This document shows, one piece after another, positions 1 through 36,521 of a stretch of DNA of 36,521 nucleotides. A model generated the notes under the pieces. That model saw only the letters and a program-made list of their open reading frames with translations, ran no database searches and was not told where the DNA came from. The DNA lies in the IMG/VR virus record IMGVR_UViG_2778261065_000031, positions 1 through 36,521 of that record; one strand, 5' to 3'. Position 1 is the first letter of the stretch; each line of letters starts with the position of its first letter. Made by a program: the position numbers and the translations under genes. The stretch comes from a virus (Duplodnaviria; Heunggongvirae; Uroviricota; Caudoviricetes).

Positions 1-1920
1 TCACCCTGCCTTGGTGTATGTCCAGTTAAATGTTGTTGTTCCCTGGCTTGTGATGGTTACAATCCTTCCTGTCACTGTAAATGATATCAACCCTCCTGAC
101 TTAAGCGGAGTTAAAGTAAGTGTTGTTCCGTCCCACATGGCAAGCTGAAGCGAAGAGAAATTTGTTCCACTGCTTTCTGCCCAAACGCTTATCAGGTACA
201 TCCCTTGGCTATTTGGCAGTTCAAACAACGTAGTTGCTACGTTAGCTGCAACAGCCTGAGTTCCTTTCGCTGTGTACACTGCTGGCAACTGATTACCTGC
301 AGAGCTTCGTGATTCAACATATGAGCCTGAAGTTTGCGTCCCAGTTAATGAGCAGTCAGTAAATACTCCATTCCCTGTGCTGTAAGTTGATATTACAGGA
401 GTCCCACCAGTCGGAGCCTTAAACCGGCATCCCTCAGCAATTATTTTTGCTGTTGAGTCTGTCAGCAATGTGTTTGGGTATCCAGAGCCAGTGTAGGTTA
501 TTGATTCGCTATCAAGGAAGCTATCGGTACTTGATTTTATGTTAACAATGCTTGTGCCTGTTGCAAAGATAAATGCTGCTGCCCCACTCCCCGTTGTTTG
601 CATTGAGTTTCCATGCCCGGCCAATCCTGATATATGGGCAATAGTATCATTAAGTTTTATATACGACGCAGTAATTCCATTTGTATTTTTTATTATATTA
701 GACTCACCATCATACCCTGTAATAGTAAGACACTTACATCCAGAAAAATATAACCCTGAGGAATCAAATGTATATTGCGACCCGTCAACTGTGATCTGGT
801 CTCCTGCACAGTTTATTAGCTGAGGAGACAGGCAATTTACAACATACCATGCCTGTGCTGCATCCAGCACATAACATGTATCCCACTGTATTGTCGTTCC
901 GTTCGCCTTATAGAAACCATGCGCAACTCTCCTCGCCCATACCTGGGTATACTTTGTTAGGTAATTTCCAGAATCATCATATATGGCCCACCATGCACCA
1001 TCAACCTCAACATTTTTAATGTGCATAACGCCTGGTGAAGTAGTTCCTCCATCAATTAGAATGCCAATTTTACCATCATTGCCAGTAGGTGATGTAGGGC
1101 GTCCTCCATCGTAAAAAATATAGACATTTTCAATATTTATTGTATTAAACGCTGCGTGGTAATGGAAACAAGCTATATTTCCTATTACTGCTATGAAAGT
1201 TTCCGGCCTATTTATGTTGCTGTTTGTTTCGCCATTTATTGTGCAGTTTGAATTCATCTCTATCGTTGCATTTACGAAGTAAGTTCCAGATGTCAATAAT
1301 ACATTCCGCCCTGTATTAATTGCGGCCTGTATGCCTGCATAGTCAAGAGACTGAGTTAGTGATGTTACGAATGGATAAACAGCCTGCGCCGCTGATAGTG
1401 TGGAGAATTTCTCGCTGAGTGGATGCAGAGTTCCGTCAGCTGTTGCACCGAAATCCTTGGCTGAAATGAAGTTGGTATTTTTATCATGTTGAGTTAAAGC
1501 TATTGAGCCGATATATGGCTGCTTAACTGCAACTAGTGCGTCACCCATTCCATCTTCTGAGCTTGCTAGCTGCTGCTTGAATTGATCTGGATCGTACTTG
1601 AGTACATTTGGGTGGTAGAACTGTCGTGCATTAAATGCGTCATACACAGCCATCGAGTGACCTTGCACAGTGACGAACTTGGCAATTTGTCCGTTATATA
1701 CCGGATATCCAGCAGCGTTAATGATGATTGGCTGCGATACAGGAACGTGAGAGCCGTCTTCGTTCTCCACATAAACCTGAATCTGGTTTTCAGGATTTAC
1801 CGGGTCAGTGTCAATTTTACCGATATAAATTTTACCATTGGCTACGGCTTTAAAAGAACGCGCCATAGTGAAGAGTTGCGAAGGCATACTCACTACAACA
1901 TTGGCTGTAATGTCTGTCAT
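1..1920 (-). CDS. Tailspike protein (P22 gene 9 homolog): conserved N-terminal head-binding domain plus a distinct receptor-binding domain
   Basis: 639 aa; N-terminus [11 protein letters not shown]...[11 protein letters not shown]...LKYDPDQ matches P22/HK620 tailspike head-binding domain from memory; SD GGAG upstream of ATG at 1920. Confidence 0.9.
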
Positions 1921-18360: not shown

Positions 18361-18984
18361 CTAACGTGTGACCGCATTCAAAATGTTGTCTGCGATTGAC
18401 TCTTCTTTGTGGCATTGCACCACCAGAGCGTCATACAGCGGCTTAACAGTGCGTGACCAGGTGGGTTGGGTAAGATTTGGGATTAGCATCGTCACAGCGC
18501 GATATGCGGCGCTTGCTGGCATCCTTGAATAGCCGACACCTTTGCATCTTCCGCATTCTTTCTCAACAACTCTCCCCCACTGCTCTGTTTTTGCTATATC
18601 AACCGCACGGCCTGTACCGTGACAATCTCTGCATCTTGCGCCCGGCGTCGCGGCACTACGGCAATAATCCGCATAAGCGAATGTTGCGAGCACTTGCAGT
18701 ACCTTTGCCTTAGTATTTCCTTCAAGCTTTGCCACACCACGGTATTTCCCCGATACCTTGTGTGCAAATTGCATCAGATAGTTGATAGCCTTTTGTTTGT
18801 CGTTCTGGCTGAGTTCATGCTTACCGCAGAATGCAGCCATTCCGAATCCGGCTTGTGATTGCGCCATCCCCATAGCAGCCATCACATCAGTACCGGAAAG
18901 AGAGTCAGAAGCCGTGGCCCGTGGTGAGTCGCTCATCATCGGGCTTTTTGGCGAATGAAATTTAGCTACGCTTTCGAGTCTCAT
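18361..18984 (-). CDS. Q: Late-gene antiterminator Q
   Basis: 207 aa; essentially identical to lambda Q (MRLESVAKFHSPKSPMMSDSPRATASDSLSGTDVMAAMG). Confidence 0.97.
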   Translation of the reverse strand: MRLESVAKFHSPKSPMMSDSPRATASDSLSGTDVMAAMGMAQSQAGFGMAAFCGKHELSQNDKQKAINYLMQFAHKVSGKYRGVAKLEGNTKAKVLQVLATFAYADYCRSAATPGARCRDCHGTGRAVDIAKTEQWGRVVEKECGRCKGVGYSRMPASAAYRAVTMLIPNLTQPTWSRTVKPLYDALVVQCHKEESIADNILNAVTR

Positions 18985-19169
18985 CGTCTTCCCCTCTTGC
19001 CCTGTTTGACCATCAGGACGCCGTTAACTATTACATGACGCTCGCCTTTGCTGTCTCGGTTGTACTTGAGCACTGTTCCTCTTGCGCAGGAAAGCATCCT
19101 TGCCACTTCAGTCTGATTGCCTCGTGTCTGGATAAGAAGCTCTGGTATCGTTTGAATTGTGGCGTTCAT
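18981..19169 (-). CDS. ninH: NinH-like small DNA-binding protein
   Basis: 62 aa; GNQTEVARMLSCARGTVLKY resembles lambda NinH; 4-nt overlap with Q. Confidence 0.6.
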   Translation of the reverse strand: MNATIQTIPELLIQTRGNQTEVARMLSCARGTVLKYNRDSKGERHVIVNGVLMVKQGKRGRR

Positions 19170-19528
19170 GCGTTCTCCAGTTCGGTGATTTTTATTCCAA
19201 GCCTTCCGCCTGGTACTTTCACGCCACGAATTACGCGAATGTCATCGAATTGCTCGTCGTCTTCCGCAAATCCGGCGTGGATAAGGGAGTCGAGTAAACC
19301 TTTCAGGATGTTGTCGAGGTCGCGGCGGCGGGAGTCTGGAACGTCTGCGATGACTTTGATGCGGAGTCGTGATTTGGTGAAAATGTCTAACTTAAGTTGG
19401 CGGATGATTTGCTGAACGTCTTTTCGGTATTTCTGGCCTTTATCGCTGATGTAGTATTGGCTTCCCCGTCTTCGCCAGTAGGTGTTCACCGACGGCGGGT
19501 ATGGAAGCACAAACTGATATTCGCTCAT
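19166..19528 (-). CDS. rusA: Holliday junction resolvase RusA
   Basis: 120 aa; PPSVNTYW...PDSRRRDLDNILKGLLDSL matches RusA family. Confidence 0.85.
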   Translation of the reverse strand: MSEYQFVLPYPPSVNTYWRRRGSQYYISDKGQKYRKDVQQIIRQLKLDIFTKSRLRIKVIADVPDSRRRDLDNILKGLLDSLIHAGFAEDDEQFDDIRVIRGVKVPGGRLGIKITELENA

Positions 19529-20742: not shown

Positions 20743-20879
20743 AGGTGAGCCGTGTAATTGAAGGTTTTTACGTCAGATTCTTTTGGTATTGGCTTGCGTT
20801 TATTTCTGGAGCGTTTCGTTGGAAGGTATTTGCAGTTTTCGCAGATGATGTCGGTGATGCTTCGTCGCTGTCGTCTCAT
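20697..20879 (-). CDS. ninE: NinE
   Basis: From internal [26 protein letters not shown]...HLWDIRWL matches lambda NinE (60 aa); ATGA overlap with upstream methyltransferase stop. Confidence 0.8.
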
Positions 20880-21403
20880 TCTGCCCTCCTGACGCCCTGC
20901 CCGATCGCCATCAATGCCGCTTTGGATACGGTAGTAAACATCCGTCGAGGACTGATGAACGGTCGCCAAATCAGCAGCATGGAGCCTTTGCTGTTTCCCT
21001 TCTTCTCCAGCCCTGTCGATGGTTCGATAAAATTAATCCGTCCATCAGTGATAATGCGAACTTCGTCGACACTCTCCAGAGCCTTGCTGAACCATCCGAC
21101 TGACATATCCTCTGGCACAAGCATCACTACCGTCTGTCGCTGTTGTATGCACTGCTCAGCGGCTTTTTCCACCCACGGCCTGATATTGCTGTACGGTGGG
21201 TTATTCCAGATTGCACCGTGGCTTACCCACTCAGAATTGAGCGCGTCGTCGGCCTCAGTTAACCAGTGAGCGCACAGAGCATTTTTGTCGCTCGCTGCCG
21301 AATCCAGCCAGAATCCAAACTCAATATCCAGTGCATCAAAAAGCCAAAGCGGCGTTTGCCAGCAGTCCTTGTCGTGTGCTGGCGTATTTGATTTGATAGT
21401 CAT
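20876..21403 (-). CDS. Orphan DNA N6-adenine methyltransferase (phage Dam-like)
   Basis: NPPY catalytic motif ([17 protein letters not shown]); start set at ATG overlapping ninB stop (ATGA); track start is 21430. Confidence 0.75.
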
Positions 21404-21846
21404 GCAGCCTTCCCTTTTCGTTGTGACCATTCATACTCTCGCCGGGAGTCATCACTCCACCGCACGTTGCGCTCTGATCCGAACCAGAACATGATTTCGA
21501 TAAGCTCAGTCATGCTGGCCTTTCGCATTTTGCTGGTACGCACGCCAAGCATGACAACGCCACCGTCGATACCAGGCACACTTCGTTGCTCCAGTTTTTT
21601 GGTCTTAAGCCACAGGGCAGTGAACAGGTCTTTCCAGTCTTCCGGCGCCAGCCGTTGACCATGCCATAGCACCTGACGCGAAACATCGTTCAGCATCGGC
21701 CACATACGGTCATTCTGCGCTTTGCTGCGTTTGGGTTCTCTAACGTGGACTTCGTGAGGTGACTTGTCGTCGATGGGGAGTGAGAGAATGGCGTCTATGG
21801 CGTTATTTCTGATTGCTTCGTTGCGAAGTATGTATATTTGCTTCAT
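21400..21846 (-). CDS. ninB: NinB (Orf-family recombination mediator)
   Basis: 148 aa; SKAQNDRMWPMLNDVSRQVLWHGQRL...RNVRWSDDSRREYEW resembles lambda NinB. Confidence 0.85.
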   Translation of the reverse strand: MKQIYILRNEAIRNNAIDAILSLPIDDKSPHEVHVREPKRSKAQNDRMWPMLNDVSRQVLWHGQRLAPEDWKDLFTALWLKTKKLEQRSVPGIDGGVVMLGVRTSKMRKASMTELIEIMFWFGSERNVRWSDDSRREYEWSQRKGKAA

Positions 21847-29668: not shown

Positions 29669-30134
29669 AATAGCCAATGAATACGCAAAGCTGATGGATT
29701 CAGATTTAGAGCCAGAGATGATTGCTGACACAATAGAAGGAATGGAAGGAGAATTTACCGATAAAATAGAGCAACTTCTTGCCATTATTAAAAATGAATC
29801 TGGTTATGCTGAACGCCTCAAGGACGAGGCAAAGTCACTAAATGAGAGAGCCGCAGTAATTCAAAATAAGATTGACAGCATTATGGCGTATATAGCGTCA
29901 TCGCTTGAAATGGTTGGCAAGAAAAAGATTCGAGCAGGTATTCACCAGGTAACAATTCGCAAACCGTCAGAAATTGTAGAAATAATCGACTCAAGCGCCC
30001 TTCCTCCTGAATACGTTGAGTTTGAAACGACAATTAAAGCCGACAAACTGGCAATCAAACACCAGCTAAAAGCAGGAATAAATATCCCCGGCGCTCAACT
30101 CAAAGTTGGGAAACCTTCACTTCTTATCAAATAA
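29652..30134 (+). CDS. Gp157-family protein (RecT-associated); GTG start
   Basis: GGAGG SD 6 nt upstream of GTG at 29652; family assignment by recall. Confidence 0.55.
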   Translation: MSKLYEIANEYAKLMDSDLEPEMIADTIEGMEGEFTDKIEQLLAIIKNESGYAERLKDEAKSLNERAAVIQNKIDSIMAYIASSLEMVGKKKIRAGIHQVTIRKPSEIVEIIDSSALPPEYVEFETTIKADKLAIKHQLKAGINIPGAQLKVGKPSLLIK

Positions 30135-30145
30135 CGGTATCGCCT

Positions 30146-30460
30146 ATGAAAAAGACTCCATGGGAGAAATGGGAAGTCGATTTCTTGCGCGAAGTGGCGG
30201 CGACAATGCCAGTTGAAGTTATCGCTGAAAAACTGGAAAGGACTGAAAAAGCAGTTATGGCGAAAGCAACAAGGATTGGCGCTGACATTGTTAGCCGACT
30301 TCGTGGAAGACGCTGGACAAGAGCCGAAGTATCACTTTTCGGTAAGTTCTCCGCAGAAGAAATAGCAATTGCAACCTGCCGCTCAATTTATTCAGTAAGA
30401 GCTATGCGATACAAGCTAAAAAAACTCAATGAAGAAAGAGCAGGCATACGAATAAATTAA
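30146..30460 (+). CDS. Hypothetical basic protein (104 aa)
   Basis: ORF in co-directional early-left array; no family recognised. Confidence 0.5.
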   Translation: MKKTPWEKWEVDFLREVAATMPVEVIAEKLERTEKAVMAKATRIGADIVSRLRGRRWTRAEVSLFGKFSAEEIAIATCRSIYSVRAMRYKLKKLNEERAGIRIN

Positions 30461-30922: not shown

Positions 30923-31563
30923 GTAACCGTTTTTACATGATGTGCTTGCGTGAAACTGTGGGTAATAACGCCTCATTCCATTGCCATAACGGCAATGGTT
31001 ACAGTTCTGATATCGATCGAGCACATGTTTACACGCAGGAAGAAGCCCAAAAAGCCTGGAATTGTGGTCGAGATATCGATCAGCCTGTTTGCGCTGATAG
31101 CGTGGATGCAATGGCTGTGTGGCACGTTGATTGCCAGTACATCCCTACAGAAAGCCTGATTGAGTCAGATTGCACTGCGTATGTGGCCTACAAAAAAGGT
31201 TGCTGGAATGGCAACGATGTTTACTGGCTTCAACACGGTGGATTGCCAACCGATGACTTCAGTAAAGCAACCATCTTTAGCGTCGCCAACAAAAACGAAC
31301 CAGGAATAGTTTGGTTGCCATTTTCCATTGCCGGTGCAGCAAAGCGGCGGACGTTCAATATCAATAATTTTAACCGCAGAACAATGGTTCAGGGCGCAGG
31401 TTTGATCATGCCTGACTGGTTGAAAAAGCAAAACAGAAGAAAGAAGTCACGAAGCGGGAAGGTGCGCTGGAATTGTCCGCATTGCGGAAAAATCACCTGG
31501 CAGTACAGCCCATATGATTTTGAAGGCTGTAGTGATTACAACTGTGAAGGATGGCGAGAATGA
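30919..31563 (+). CDS. Cysteine-rich protein with C-terminal zinc-ribbon-like motif (GTG start)
   Basis: AAGGAGG SD then GTG at 30919; [11 protein letters not shown]...CSDYNCEGW. Confidence 0.5.
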
Positions 31564-32252
31564 CAATTGACTATCAGGTACTGCGTGAGGCGGCAGAAAA
31601 GGCAACACCAGACGAATGGGTCGCATTTATTTCGACGGATACTGGTACTTATGCGGTGCACACGCCCGGTGATGAACGATGTGAAGACGTTATCAAATGG
31701 ACAGGCTTTGATGGACAGAAAAATGCAGAGAACAACGCTCGTCATGTTGCCGCGTTCAACCCAAAGGTTGCACTGGAGCTGCTTGGTGAAATTAAGTGCT
31801 TGGAGGACACAAATATTGATGCCACGTGCCGAATTTCAGAGCTTGAGACTAATCTCGCTGCGCTGGTGGCAGAGAACGCTGGGCTGAAACACGCAATGGC
31901 CGTAACTCTTGAGCATGTGTCGGTCACGGATGCAGGGCAGGCCGGAGTTGCTGCAATGATTATCAACGATGCCCTGCACCACAGCGAAACTCCAGCTACC
32001 GATGCTTTTCTAGCTGAAGTGAAGACTGAAGCACGCAAGGAAGGCGCTTATTTTGTGGCGAACAGAATGCTGGCTGCCTGGGAAGCTGGTTTTATTGATG
32101 ATACTGCGAAGAACGCCGCGGATATTGCCCGGATGATTCTTACCTCTACTGAGTTTATGGCTAATGCGCCGGAAGGCGATTTTGACCGCTCATTCTCTGA
32201 TGGCGTTCTCGAAGATATCGCCGCCCAGCTTCGCAAAGGAGGCAACCAGTGA
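31560..32252 (+). CDS. Ea22-like family protein (paralog 1), tentative
   Basis: N-terminal [17 protein letters not shown] and FNPKVALELLGEIK shared with the next gene; ATGA overlap upstream. Confidence 0.45.
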   Translation: MTIDYQVLREAAEKATPDEWVAFISTDTGTYAVHTPGDERCEDVIKWTGFDGQKNAENNARHVAAFNPKVALELLGEIKCLEDTNIDATCRISELETNLAALVAENAGLKHAMAVTLEHVSVTDAGQAGVAAMIINDALHHSETPATDAFLAEVKTEARKEGAYFVANRMLAAWEAGFIDDTAKNAADIARMILTSTEFMANAPEGDFDRSFSDGVLEDIAAQLRKGGNQ

Positions 32253-32956
32253 GCAAGATTGATTATCAAAAGCTTCGTAAAATCGCTGAAAAAACAAAAA
32301 TTGCTGGTGAAGCACCTGTAATGCCTTTCGATCAGCGAATTAATGCGCTTAACGATTTTATGAAGCACTTTTCGCCAGATATCGCGCTGGCATTGTTGGA
32401 TGAACGGGAAAGAAACCAGCAATACATCAAATCACGCGACCAGGAGAACGAGGATATTGCGCTAACGGTAGGGAAGCTGAGAGTTGAGCTTGAGGAAGTA
32501 AAACAACACGCTGAAGAATTATCCGAAACCAAGGCTGTTCGTAACCAATGGCGGCCAGATATTTGCCCAATAACCGGACGTGCATTTTTCATGTGGATTG
32601 AGCATCCAACATTGGGAAATGTGCCGACATATGGTGGCCCATTAGATAGTTACACCATTCCAACAAAGGACGGTGACGGTGAGTTTTCATGTGAGCGTTA
32701 CGATCATGATTTTGGCGGTTGGGTAGAAAGCGAATGTCTTGGGTTATATCTGATTGATGATAGAGAACAATGCAGGGTCTACGAACTGGAGGAACGCGTT
32801 AAGGAACTGGATGCTCGGGAAATATCGCTCCCGGAACGTAGCAGCATGCTTCATCGAACAGATTTTAACGAGGATTACCACACGGTAATGGCATACAAAG
32901 TTTCTGAAGTCATCGCTGCAATCCGCGCTGCTGGTATTCGCATCAAAGGAGATTGA
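32249..32956 (+). CDS. Ea22-like family protein (paralog 2), tentative; GTG start
   Basis: N-terminal MSKIDYQKLRKIAEK and FSPDIALALLDERE; preceded by the same 22-bp junction as the 30919 gene. Confidence 0.45.
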   Translation: MSKIDYQKLRKIAEKTKIAGEAPVMPFDQRINALNDFMKHFSPDIALALLDERERNQQYIKSRDQENEDIALTVGKLRVELEEVKQHAEELSETKAVRNQWRPDICPITGRAFFMWIEHPTLGNVPTYGGPLDSYTIPTKDGDGEFSCERYDHDFGGWVESECLGLYLIDDREQCRVYELEERVKELDAREISLPERSSMLHRTDFNEDYHTVMAYKVSEVIAAIRAAGIRIKGD

Positions 32957-32957
32957 G

Positions 32958-33473
32958 ATGGCGTTAACACACCGCGAACTCTGTCAGATTGCGTACAAGT
33001 TCCTTAAGCGCAACGGGTTCAAGGTTTGCTTTCATGACCGCTTTATAGCTGTAACCAGTACCGGAGAACAGCCAGATGCTATGGGATTCAGAAATTCAGC
33101 ATCATGCCTGATAGAGGCGAAGTGTTCTCGTGCTGACTTGTTGGCAGATAGAAAAAAGCGTTTTCGTAAAAATCCGTCTCTTGGAATGGGCGACTGGCGA
33201 TTCTTTATTAGTGAGCCGGGAATTATTTCAATTGAGGATTTACCACCTGGCTGGGGATTACTTCACGTTGTTAACGGAAGAGTACGGAAAGTACATGGGT
33301 GGCCCAGGGGTAATTGCTGTTGGGGTAATCCTGACGATAAGCCATTTACTGGAAATAAGCAGGTTGAATGCGATTACATGTTATCTGCATTAAGGCGCAT
33401 GGAGTTGAGAGGGCACCTTAATGAAATATATGACGGTGTAATTGTTAATAAGAAAGAAGGAAACGCGGCATGA
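32958..33473 (+). CDS. Putative PD-(D/E)xK-fold nuclease (171 aa)
   Basis: Candidate motif GEQPDAMGF...CLIEAKCS (PD ... EAK); 4-nt overlap with the DUF551 gene. Confidence 0.45.
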   Translation: MALTHRELCQIAYKFLKRNGFKVCFHDRFIAVTSTGEQPDAMGFRNSASCLIEAKCSRADLLADRKKRFRKNPSLGMGDWRFFISEPGIISIEDLPPGWGLLHVVNGRVRKVHGWPRGNCCWGNPDDKPFTGNKQVECDYMLSALRRMELRGHLNEIYDGVIVNKKEGNAA

Positions 33474-34189
33474 TCACTATTACCAAAGAGCGACTACTGA
33501 CAATCAAGCAGTGGCGCGAAACATACGGACCTGGTAGCAACGTTGTACTGCCAGCAGAAGAAGCGGAAGAACTGGCACGAATTGCTCTGGCATCACTGGA
33601 AGCAGAACCAGTTGCTTATATTTTCAAACATCCGGCCGGGAAATTATTCTGGGCTTTAACGGATGAAAGCAATAAAGAGCAAGCGGACGTTATTCCTGTT
33701 TATGCTGCCGCGCCTGCGTCGGTTGTGCCGGATGATGCATCAGGGTCGCTTGCTTATGCTTACAAAGAGCTTACGCCTGAGATTATGCGCGGTCATATCG
33801 CTGTATTCGAGCGATATGGAATAGCCCCAAACGATAGCATTACCACAATTCAGGCACTGCGAATCGCGCTGGATGGCATAGAGCGGAGCGACGCCATGCT
33901 TCATGGTGCCGAACCCGTAAGCCAAACTTACAAGTTGAACGAGCTATCTGGCAACTATCCGGCAACTCCGGATAGTTGGATAAGCTGTAGTGAGCGAATG
34001 CCGGAAAAGAACAAGAACGTGCTTATTTCGGTGAATTTCGACAGCTCTCTGGTTGAACCGCTAATATGCTCCGCACGCTATACCGGAAGCACATTCCGGC
34101 GAGGAGAAGCAACGATTAAGCCGGGTAATGGTATTGAGCAGGCAACTCACTGGATGCCGCTACCGGAACCGCCGCAGGAGGCGAAATGA
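33470..34189 (+). CDS. DUF551 domain protein
   Basis: C-terminal WISCSERMPEKNKNVLIS...THWMPLPEPP typical of DUF551 by recall. Confidence 0.6.
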   Translation: MITITKERLLTIKQWRETYGPGSNVVLPAEEAEELARIALASLEAEPVAYIFKHPAGKLFWALTDESNKEQADVIPVYAAAPASVVPDDASGSLAYAYKELTPEIMRGHIAVFERYGIAPNDSITTIQALRIALDGIERSDAMLHGAEPVSQTYKLNELSGNYPATPDSWISCSERMPEKNKNVLISVNFDSSLVEPLICSARYTGSTFRRGEATIKPGNGIEQATHWMPLPEPPQEAK

Positions 34190-34446
34190 TGGATGTTCAA
34201 GAGAAGGTTTTGCAGGTGATGCGTTCCCGTGCAGCCCTGCAAGAGAAAGTTCTCGGCGGGGAATATCCATTCAGGATGGCAACCTGGAGTCTGCGGTTGG
34301 CAATGGAGAAGGAATTTCCTGATGAAGAATGGCGTTCGGCAGATTTGCGCAAAACTCTTATGGAGATGGCTAAAGACGGAACAGTATCCAAAGATACCTA
34401 TGCCAGCCGGATTGGTCAGGCGGTATGGAGACTGGAGGTGAGGTAA
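34186..34446 (+). CDS. Hypothetical protein (86 aa)
   Basis: ORF; TAATG overlap with the downstream gene. Confidence 0.45.
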   Translation: MMDVQEKVLQVMRSRAALQEKVLGGEYPFRMATWSLRLAMEKEFPDEEWRSADLRKTLMEMAKDGTVSKDTYASRIGQAVWRLEVR

Positions 34447-34730
34447 TGGCTAACCTGCAACTTGCCGTAAAAGGTGAATACTTCGATGCCATGATTCGTG
34501 GAGAGAAAACGGAAGAGTATCGCTTGTGTAATGACTACTGGAATAAGCGAATTATGTTCAGGGAGTATGACCGCCTGATTATCACAAAGGGATATCCGAA
34601 GCGCGACGATTCCAGCCGTAGAATTGATGTTCCGTATGACGGATATGAAATCAAGACAATCACACATCCACACTTCGGTGATAAACCGGTAAAGGTGTTC
34701 GCGATAAAGGTGAATATCGGCAATGAATAA
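34446..34730 (+). CDS. ASCH-like (DUF3850-type) small protein
   Basis: From MANLQLAVKGEYFDAMIRGEKTEEYR; pattern fits ASCH/PUA-like phage proteins by recall; GGAGGTGAGG SD. Confidence 0.5.
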   Translation: MANLQLAVKGEYFDAMIRGEKTEEYRLCNDYWNKRIMFREYDRLIITKGYPKRDDSSRRIDVPYDGYEIKTITHPHFGDKPVKVFAIKVNIGNE

Positions 34731-34802
34731 CAATCCTCGAACTCGCGGGGATTTCTTTTATCTGAACTCACTACGGCGGGTTTTGTTTTATGGAGACAAG
34801 AA

Positions 34803-35147
34803 ATGTCAGATTTGGCTATGAAGGTTTTGAAATGGCAATCGACTGGCGATGTTGGCATCAGTAGCGCAACTCTTGCCTCAATCGCATGTGGACTGAAAAA
34901 GAATATCTATGGTCATCACTTCGGCGCTCCCCATGACGCAGCCGATTTCAGACGATGCGTTGCACTTGTTGAGCAGATTCCAGAAATCAGAGATTCATTC
35001 AACAAGGTTGCAAAGCGCGTTCCGGCATTCAAAGGAATCCTCAACGAATGGGATTCCCTCGTTGCTCTGTTGAAGTCTGAAATGAAGATACACGGAAACA
35101 AAGCACCAGAGACTTACAGAAGAATCAGCGAGCTACGCAAGGACTAA
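34803..35147 (+). CDS. Hypothetical protein (114 aa)
   Basis: ORF upstream of xis; no family recognised. Confidence 0.45.
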   Translation: MSDLAMKVLKWQSTGDVGISSATLASIACGLKKNIYGHHFGAPHDAADFRRCVALVEQIPEIRDSFNKVAKRVPAFKGILNEWDSLVALLKSEMKIHGNKAPETYRRISELRKD

Positions 35148-35251
35148 CCATGAAATAACACCGCCGGCCTGTTCATTGCTCAATGATATCCAGACCTACC
35201 ATCGCCGCATCAATGCGGCTTTTTCTTGCGTGTAATTGCGGAGACTTTGCG

Positions 35252-35470
35252 ATGTACTTAACACTTCAGGAGTGGAACGCACGCCAGCGACGTCCAAGAA
35301 GTCTTGAAACAGTTCGTCGATGGGTGCGCGAATGCAGGATATTCCCTCCTCCGGTTAAGGATGGAAGAGAGTATCTGTTCCACGAATCAGCGGTAAAGGT
35401 TGACTTAAATCGACCAGTAACAGGTAGCCTTTTGAAGAGGATCAGAAATGGGAAGAAGGCGAAGTCATGA
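35252..35470 (+). CDS. xis: Excisionase Xis; track ORF trimmed to internal ATG
   Basis: From MYLTLQEWNARQRRPRSLETVRRWVRECRIFPPPVKDGREYLF essentially identical to lambda Xis (72 aa). Confidence 0.92.
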   Translation: MYLTLQEWNARQRRPRSLETVRRWVRECRIFPPPVKDGREYLFHESAVKVDLNRPVTGSLLKRIRNGKKAKS

Positions 35471-36521
35471 GCGCCGGGATTTACCCCCTAACCTTTATAT
35501 AAGAAACAATGGATATTACTGCTACAGGGACCCAAGGACGGGTAAAGAGTTCGGATTAGGCAGAGACAGAAGGATAGCAGTTTCAGAGGCTATTCAGGCC
35601 AATATTGAGTTGCTATCCGAGAACAGGCGTGAGTCACTGATAGACAGAATTAAAGGCGCTGACGTAATCACTCTTCATGTGTGGCTTGACCGATATGAAA
35701 CAATCCTCAGCGAGAGGGGTGTCAGGCCGAAAACTCTACTCGACTACGCCAGCAAAATCAGGGCAATCCGAAGAAAATTGCCGGACAAACCGCTCGCTGA
35801 CATATCAACGAAAGAGGTGGCAACAATGCTAAACACCTACGTAGCAGAAGGTAAAGCGGCCTCCGCAAAATTAATCAGATCAACCCTTGTTGACGTTTTT
35901 CGTGAAGCAATAGCCGAGGGGCATGTGGCAACGAATCCGGTAACAGCAACCCGTACAGCAAAGTCAGAAGTAAGGCGCTCAAGGCTGACAGCTAATGAGT
36001 ATGTCGAGATTTACCATGCAGCCGAACCTCTCCCTATCTGGCTAAGGCTGGCGATGGATTTGGCCGTCGTTACAGGGCAGAGAGTCGGCGATTTGTGCAG
36101 AATGAAATGGTCAGACATAAACGACAACCATCTTCACATTGAACAGAGTAAAACAGGGGCTAAACTCGCCATTCCGCTAACGCTAACGATTGACGCGCTC
36201 AATATCTCATTGGCTGATACACTACAGAAATGCAGGGAGGCCAGCAGCAGTGAAACAATAATCGCATCAAAGCATCACGATCCGCTTTCCCCGAAAACAG
36301 TATCGAAGTATTTTACAAAGGCGAGAAATGCATCAGGACTCTCATTTGATGGAGACCCGCCAACATTCCATGAACTGCGTAGCCTGTCGGCGAGGCTATA
36401 CCGGAACCAGATTGGCGATAAGTTTGCTCAACGTCTTCTCGGGCATAAATCAGATTCAATGGCGGCGCGGTATAGGGACAGCCGTGGACGGGAATGGGAC
36501 AAAATTGAAATCGACAAATGA
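35448..36521 (+). CDS. int: Tyrosine integrase (lambda Int family)
   Basis: 357 aa; MGRRRSHERRDLPPNLYIRNNGYYCYRDPRTGKEFGLGRDRRIA and C-terminal HELRSLSARLY...LLGHKSD match lambda Int; 23-nt overlap with xis. Confidence 0.97.
   Translation: MGRRRSHERRDLPPNLYIRNNGYYCYRDPRTGKEFGLGRDRRIAVSEAIQANIELLSENRRESLIDRIKGADVITLHVWLDRYETILSERGVRPKTLLDYASKIRAIRRKLPDKPLADISTKEVATMLNTYVAEGKAASAKLIRSTLVDVFREAIAEGHVATNPVTATRTAKSEVRRSRLTANEYVEIYHAAEPLPIWLRLAMDLAVVTGQRVGDLCRMKWSDINDNHLHIEQSKTGAKLAIPLTLTIDALNISLADTLQKCREASSSETIIASKHHDPLSPKTVSKYFTKARNASGLSFDGDPPTFHELRSLSARLYRNQIGDKFAQRLLGHKSDSMAARYRDSRGREWDKIEIDK

Follow-up and report, generated by a model that had tools for sequence, protein, structure and literature searches.

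A predicted MmcB-like PD-(D/E)xK nuclease gene and a modular DUF551 gene joined by mosaic recombination in the early-left operon of a temperate coliphage

In the b/ea early-left accessory region, the lambdoid phage lambda encodes a non-essential endonuclease activity, that of Ea31/Ea59. The Caulobacter protein MmcB has been described as an endonuclease of the PD-(D/E)xK type that is required for tolerance of mitomycin C and cisplatin, and it has been proposed as a partner of translesion polymerases (PMC9578287). This role in the tolerance of interstrand crosslinks is known only for the Caulobacter protein. MmcB stands for the MmcB-like family (Pfam PF06319, formerly DUF1052), to which the protein of structure 3DNX (SPO1766) also belongs; the 3DNX fragment scores 112 bits on the Pfam model and is a clear member. 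The archaeal Holliday junction resolvase Hjc (Pfam PF01870) and the AHJR-like nucleases are built on a minimal PD-(D/E)xK core. DUF551 has been treated as a portable domain, which occurs in YfdS, in some Stx-phage Ea22 variants and in MazZ-type proteins (PMC10834534, PMC4776307). Phenotypes of yfdS mutants, such as sensitivity to H2O2, have also been reported (PMC4776307, PMC10834534). In the literature on DUF551, MmcB, the exo-xis region and accessory-gene screens, no study of the nuclease family described below was found.

In this study, we analysed a window of 36,521 nt, which is the whole stretch of the viral record, and the source phage is a temperate coliphage of the P22-like (Lederbergvirus-type) or lambdoid kind. 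The initial annotation had described a 171-aa protein with a PD...EAK signature (here ORF A), overlapping a DUF551 protein (here ORF B), and had proposed that the two are a coupled nuclease-partner unit. We found that both genes are present as described, and that their pairing is the product of mosaic recombination and not a dedicated two-gene system. The features on which this rests are as follows.

Minus strand: structural, lysis and nin-region genes, with Q at 18361-18984, RusA at 19166-19528, Dam at 20876-21430 and NinB at 21400-21846
Plus strand: early-left operon, in which RecT (28757-29668) and a Gp157-like gene (29646-30134) are followed in order by two Ea22-like genes, ORF A, ORF B, three small ORFs, xis and int
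32249-32956, plus strand: upstream Ead/Ea22-like gene, 235 aa (Pfam Ead_Ea22, E 1e-17)
About 32921-33615, plus strand: mosaic cassette of ORF A and its junctions, often with the ORF B leader, from blastn breakpoints in 80 viral loci
32945-32951, plus strand: Shine-Dalgarno-like AAAGGAG, 6 nt 5' of the ORF A ATG, read from the sequence
32958-33473, plus strand: ORF A, 171 aa, predicted divergent MmcB-like PD-(D/E)xK nuclease
33066-33122, plus strand: catalytic core codons of ORF A (E37 at 33066-33068, P39-D40 at 33072-33077, E53-A54-K55 at 33114-33122)
33470-34189, plus strand: ORF B, 239 aa, mosaic EaA-type protein of leader, middle module and DUF551
33470-33610, plus strand: N-terminal leader of ORF B (aa 1-47, MITITKERLL...ARIALASLEAEP), common to most downstream variants
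33584-33609, plus strand: DNA encoding the ALASLEAEP junction, the commonest breakpoint, with a single match in the window
33974-34177, plus strand: DUF551 domain (aa 169-236), a small all-beta SH3/Tudor-like barrel ending in HWMPLPEPP

The claimed 4-nt overlap is real. The ATG of ORF B (33470-33472) and the TGA stop of ORF A (33471-33473) form ATGA, and the ORF B start is preceded by AAGGA at 33457-33461. As a sign of special pairing, however, the overlap fails, since 4-nt overlaps recur along the operon. ATGA or GTGA overlaps are found at 28757-28760, 32249-32252 and 34186-34189, and there are further tight junctions: a single nucleotide (32957) separates ORF A from the gene before it, and overlaps of greater length lie at 31551-31563 and 34425-34446. 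We attribute the ATGA overlap to this tight operon packing; it is also part of the 3' boundary of the cassette that carries ORF A. No promoter-like site was found 5' of ORF A, so transcription of the A/B pair is expected to come from pL, either in the early lytic phase or following induction.

Several other features of the operon and of the window were observed. Two Ead/Ea22-like paralogues (233 and 235 aa; 31551-32252 and 32249-32956) stand in tandem with a GTGA overlap, immediately 5' of ORF A. The 221-aa ORF at 30898-31563 matches phrog_2457 and no Pfam family, and its Cys-rich C-terminus (CPHCGKITW...CSDYNCEGW) has the look of a zinc ribbon. Three small conserved ORFs fill the stretch between ORF B and xis (34186-35147), with 86 aa (phrog_2814), 101 aa (phrog_625) and 114 aa (phrog_1229), respectively; the 101-aa ORF has a weak ASCH-like match (E 0.08), and a terminator-like hairpin (34732-34753) comes after it. 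The true start of the listed xis ORF (35183-35470, 95 aa) probably lies further downstream: Pfam Exc matches only residues 24-95, the excisionase annotated in the related phage Gally has 72 aa, and a terminator-like hairpin at 35204-35219 falls within the 5' extension. Both ends of the window (1-3 and 36519-36521) are stop codons, those of a 639-aa ORF (1-1920, minus strand) and of the integrase (35448-36521), so the window was apparently cut at gene boundaries.

The RecT gene (28757-29668) has a Gp157-like protein and small ORFs as neighbours in 28449-30460, and among the ORFs scanned no RecE or lambda-Exo-type exonuclease partner of RecT was recognised. ORF A was considered as the missing exonuclease partner and rejected, because phage Gally has RecT without ORF A. 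The same idea is contradicted by the ORF A cassette, which moves apart from recombination genes and occurs in P1-like phages. ORF A as the only junction resolvase of the phage was rejected as well, because RusA is present.

The 171-aa protein with its PD...EAK signature was found as the initial annotation had stated, with P39-D40 (the D40 codon is 33075-33077) and E53-A54-K55. Downstream of this core lies an S57-R58-x-D60...D64 motif that is common to MmcB, and the motif of ORF A aligns with ECKSSRADFQAD of 3DNX. The nuclease fold had been left to structure prediction and profile comparison, and both spoke for it. In the AF2 model of ORF A, the secondary structure elements follow the alpha-beta-beta-beta-alpha-beta order of the PD-(D/E)xK core fold. 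D40 stands just before the strand 41-45, and E53 and K55 stand at the close of the strand 48-54. This is the arrangement that marks the PD-(D/E)xK superfamily, in which strand 2 opens with the catalytic D and strand 3 holds the (D/E)-x-K residues. The catalytic motif is thus intact, and it is conserved in the family. The confidence of the model is moderate, with a pLDDT of 70.7 and with residues 27-37 and 145-171 below 50.

Searches with ORF A alone against Pfam, NCBIfam, PADLOC and the PDB gave nothing significant, and its strong matches among the PHROGs included no family with an assigned function. The relationship of ORF A was revealed only by family profiles and the structure model. A profile of 70 ORF A family sequences hit 3DNX in hmmsearch with an E of 9.3e-5, and hhalign of the family with the 3DNX segment gave 97.9% probability (E 3.8e-13, 35% identity over 84 columns). 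The closest structural neighbour of ORF A was a member of the MmcB-like family, and among predicted viral structures (BFVD), some of the phage proteins that the model matched bear the annotation 'MmcB family DNA repair protein'. ORF A itself did not reach the gathering cut-off of PF06319 (22 bits) and had no match to it even at E 0.1. Sub-threshold MmcB-like matches were obtained for 16 of the 70 family members, and one relative, P0262, passes the cut-off with 23.1 bits.

A weaker resemblance leads to Hjc. The minimal PD-(D/E)xK core is common to Hjc and the ORF A family, and 45 of the 70 members have sub-threshold matches to PF01870 (best E 1.3e-4). However, the family profile reached Hjc chains with E values of 0.16-0.51 only, and the matches at 0.16-0.24 run from helix 1 to strand 3. 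The similarity is below significance and is limited to the first ~60 residues, and ORF A has no match to PF01870 (cut-off 21.1 bits). From the profiles and the model, we consider ORF A a divergent PD-(D/E)xK relative of the MmcB-like nucleases that lies outside the current Pfam model, and it is best described as a predicted phage-borne sister branch of the MmcB-like family. Two parts set it apart from 3DNX, since the insertion FRxxPxxGMGDWRF and the conserved C-terminal helix region NKQxE...SALRR are both missing from the 3DNX alignment. The settings also differ: ORF A is phage-borne and lies in the pL early operon, whereas MmcB is encoded by a chromosomal, SOS-regulated gene (PMC9578287). The likeness of ORF A to Ea31 and Ea59 of lambda is an analogy of genomic position only, and a sequence relationship is not expected.

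ORF A belongs to a large family. A profile search (E at most 1e-3) collected 3291 clusters at 50% identity, and the family was found in 641 phage records. At an identity of at least 95%, ORF A is present in 910 of 5426 complete E. coli genomes (~17%), its carriers include Stx-converting prophages and P1/P7-like phage-plasmids, and a single genome can hold up to 6 copies. The pN/pS of 45 alleles was 0.08, which indicates purifying selection. The relatives in 3291 clusters, this low ratio and the prevalence in E. coli show that ORF A is a real, constrained gene rather than a chance ORF. In the alignment of 70 homologues, which reaches down to 33% identity, D40, D60, G78 and R81 are invariant. 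At least 90% conservation was found for H5, E37, P39, E53, K55, S57, R58, D64, K67 and R70, and also for W99-G100-L101, E137 and R146-R147. Every public homologue of ORF A that we saw is named 'hypothetical protein'.

ORF B is an ordinary DUF551/EaA protein. It matches Pfam DUF551 (PF04448) over the full length of the profile (positions 1-68 of 68) with an E of 1.1e-21 and 77.9 bits, against a cut-off of 22, which bears out the description of the partner gene as a DUF551 protein. Its full-length DUF551 domain is also that of P22 EaA, E. coli YfdS and other DUF551 proteins, and P22 eaA lies in the same ea region beside xis-int. In ORF B, however, the leader is joined to its middle module in a combination that is one among many. 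Its PHROG matches include phrog_60 and phrog_6847, the latter covering the middle module, and none of them has an assigned function. ORF B has no match to the Ead/Ea22-like family PF13935, and the PHROG supercluster phrog_60 is its sole tie to the upstream Ea22-like gene. In public records, its close relatives are called 'EaA protein' or 'DUF551 domain-containing protein'. The C-terminal DUF551 barrel, the modelled part of ORF B, probably serves in binding or as an adaptor.

The breakpoints around ORF A were read from 80 viral loci, which are contigs with an ORF A copy of 98-100% identity and are thus informative for breakpoints and not for distant context. The left edge of the shared block fell at 32915-32940, within 43 nt of the ORF A ATG, in 71 of the 80 loci, and the final ~20-35 nt of the upstream Ea22-like gene are part of the conserved block that travels with ORF A. 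The right edge fell either at 33484-33495, 11-22 nt past the ORF A stop (19 loci), or at 33600-33620, approximately 140 nt into the next gene (40 loci). The latter position is that of the ALASLEAEP-encoding DNA, which is overlapped by a small hairpin (inverted repeat) at 33595-33612. Alternative, unrelated leaders in other phages likewise end in ALASLEAEP, so this peptide has the look of a conserved linker at which EaA/Ea22-type genes exchange modules. The next gene begins with MITITKERLLTI in 43 of the 80 loci, and the gene after these near-identical copies of ORF A had 67 different sequences. Among 62 distinct complete downstream variants, that of the window included, DUF551 was found in 36 and a domain of the dATP/dGTP pyrophosphohydrolase type in 1; the other 25 matched no Pfam family. 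Each of the 80 close E. coli phage copies retains the ATGA overlap with its EaA-type neighbour, because the first codons of the next gene belong to the edge of the cassette. ORF A itself keeps an identity of 97-100% among phages with unrelated flanks, be they lambdoid, Stx, P22-like or P1/P7-like.

Outside Escherichia, the next gene is usually a different one. We compared 33 genome loci of other species with ORF A homologues at 42-91% identity; they were found from a narrower alignment and are therefore biased to Gammaproteobacteria. DUF551 was directly downstream in 2 of 27 loci, was the second gene downstream in 1 more and lay upstream in 1. Among the other next genes are those for NinG, RusA, two DNA methylases, TraC and an FtsK-gamma protein. 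The wider neighbourhoods are prophage early regions and some conjugative elements, with genes for integrases, Ea22, lambda O and P, IstB/DnaB loaders, NinG, Q, RusA and methylases. At 30-60% identity, the family also occupies fixed positions in the replication modules of virulent phages. For example, gp76 of Salmonella phage Det7 (4980-5597 of locus L116) stands directly before a gp61-like primase, and SSP002_061 of Vibrio phage SSP002 (4863-5480 of locus L117) stands after two helicases and Pol I. These two homologues have ~205 aa and overlap or abut the next gene, and in the annotation deposited for each phage, neither of the flanking genes has a DUF551 name. In complete E. coli genomes, the 1232-nt pair region matched 2630 genomes, whereas ORF A alone matched 931 (910 at a coverage of at least 80%). 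In these loci, we found no conserved co-occurrence of ORF A and DUF551 across lineages, and this result, together with the 67 next-gene sequences in 80 copies, speaks against the proposed coupled unit.

Some natural fusions point the other way. P0221, a distant relative, joins an ORF A-type domain to a DUF551-like tail (E 8e-4, 20.6 bits, just below the cut-off), and P0020, from an E. coli contig, has an ORF A-type domain in frame with DUF551. In the Salmonella proteins P0093 and P0109, the ORF A domain stands behind an Ead/Ea22 leader. P0219 combines it with a MazZ-type dATP/dGTP pyrophosphohydrolase (PF04447), P0136 places it behind a TniB-like AAA+ ATPase, and proteins with PF04447 plus DUF551 also occur. 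Together, the fusions mark the ORF A domain as a module that can be shuffled within this pool of proteins. P0219 and P0136 suggest links of this domain to nucleotide-pool or transposition-type machinery, and P0221 and P0020 make a loose functional link between ORF A and DUF551 possible.

We believe that ORF A and ORF B are two separable accessory genes of the pL 'ea' operon, one for an MmcB-like DNA endonuclease and the other for a modular EaA-type adaptor protein, and we give this reading a probability of approximately 55%. ORF A is most likely a metal-dependent, structure- or damage-specific DNA endonuclease that serves phage replication and recombination. We infer this role from the homology to MmcB, the weaker resemblance to Hjc and the replication and recombination genes that surround the family in temperate and virulent phages. 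In the proposed mechanism, D40 and E53, and possibly also E37, would bind Mg2+, K55 would take part in catalysis, and the conserved basic residues R58, K67, R70, R81, R146 and R147 would contact DNA. ORF A would cut DNA by structure or damage and not by specific sequence, and its likely substrates are the forks, branches or lesions that arise from phage replication and recombination. ORF B would be modular, its variable middle part flanked by a short helical leader and by the DUF551 beta-barrel, a probable binding or adaptor domain. Against the need for a further junction-processing nuclease, the same phage encodes RusA (19166-19528, minus strand) and NinB.

The initial annotation had taken the pairing as a pointer to anti-defence or host-DNA targeting. 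In a partnership to this end, ORF A would be the nuclease and ORF B a targeting or regulatory subunit, with DUF551 directing or restraining the nuclease. A partnership of this kind would agree with the ATGA overlap in 80 of 80 copies, with DUF551 as the commonest C-terminal module (36 of 62), with the fusions P0221 and P0020 and with the place of the genes in a fast-turnover accessory block. It is nevertheless doubtful. The DUF551 neighbour is found in 2 of 27 loci of other species, 26 of the 62 distinct downstream proteins in E. coli phages are without it, and the cassette breakpoint precedes the DUF551 module in most copies. The unequal counts of the pair region and of ORF A alone (2630 and 931 genomes), and the virulent phages that keep the nuclease in replication modules, also argue against it, as do the PADLOC models, which gave no family for either protein at E 0.1. 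In a broader version, DUF551 would be an SH3/Tudor-like adaptor with which phages equip one or another DNA- or nucleotide-metabolising effector, either within a single protein or through an adjacent coupled gene. The effectors seen are Ea22 coiled coils, the MmcB-like nuclease and a dATP/dGTP pyrophosphohydrolase of the MazZ type. A target common to them, in the host or in the phage, would then be the place to which ORF B recruits the ORF A nuclease or at which it gates it. This idea is drawn from P0221, P0020, P0219, the PF04447-plus-DUF551 proteins and the ATGA coupling in 80 of 80 copies, and we regard it as unlikely.

The mobility of ORF A could also be its own doing, if it were a selfish homing-type endonuclease cassette that spreads by cutting alleles without ORF A. 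The sharp edges of the cassette, the near identity across phages with unrelated flanks and the presence of up to 6 copies per genome would suit such an element. However, the mosaic pattern is typical of all genes here and is explained by recombination at junctions such as ALASLEAEP, ORF A has no recognisable sequence-specific DNA-binding domain, and the fixed positions of its relatives in the replication modules of virulent phages resemble a housekeeping role, which makes homing very unlikely. PD-(D/E)xK nucleases are frequent defence effectors, and the prophages and phage-plasmids of E. coli very often carry ORF A, so that a nuclease for prophage defence or superinfection exclusion, expressed in the lysogen, can be imagined. 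Yet a gene within the pL operon without a promoter-like site of its own should be repressed in the lysogen, PADLOC has no match for ORF A, and the family is present in strictly virulent phages; we hold this role to be highly improbable. These virulent carriers also speak against a lysogeny-specific role, which would be expected if ORF A were a non-cutting DNA-binding or regulatory protein of the lysis-lysogeny decision, like lambda Ea22. Ea22 has been reported to favour lysogeny (PMC10834534), the neighbours of ORF A are Ea22-like genes, and P0093 and P0109 carry the ORF A domain behind an Ead/Ea22 leader. Distant relatives, however, keep the full catalytic set, which is unusual for inactivated PD-(D/E)xK domains, and an inactive regulator is scarcely probable. 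We therefore keep to the reading of two separable accessory genes, and the A/B locus is not a new kind of system.

The useful outcomes of this study are the annotation of a very common prophage gene and the tracing of an apparent A/B pair to mosaic recombination. ORF A stands for a large phage family without annotation, and family profiles and a predicted structure now connect this family with the MmcB-like repair nucleases. This link gives a concrete biochemical hypothesis for a gene that is called 'hypothetical protein' in all public records seen, and with it the MmcB-like repair family gains a predicted phage branch.
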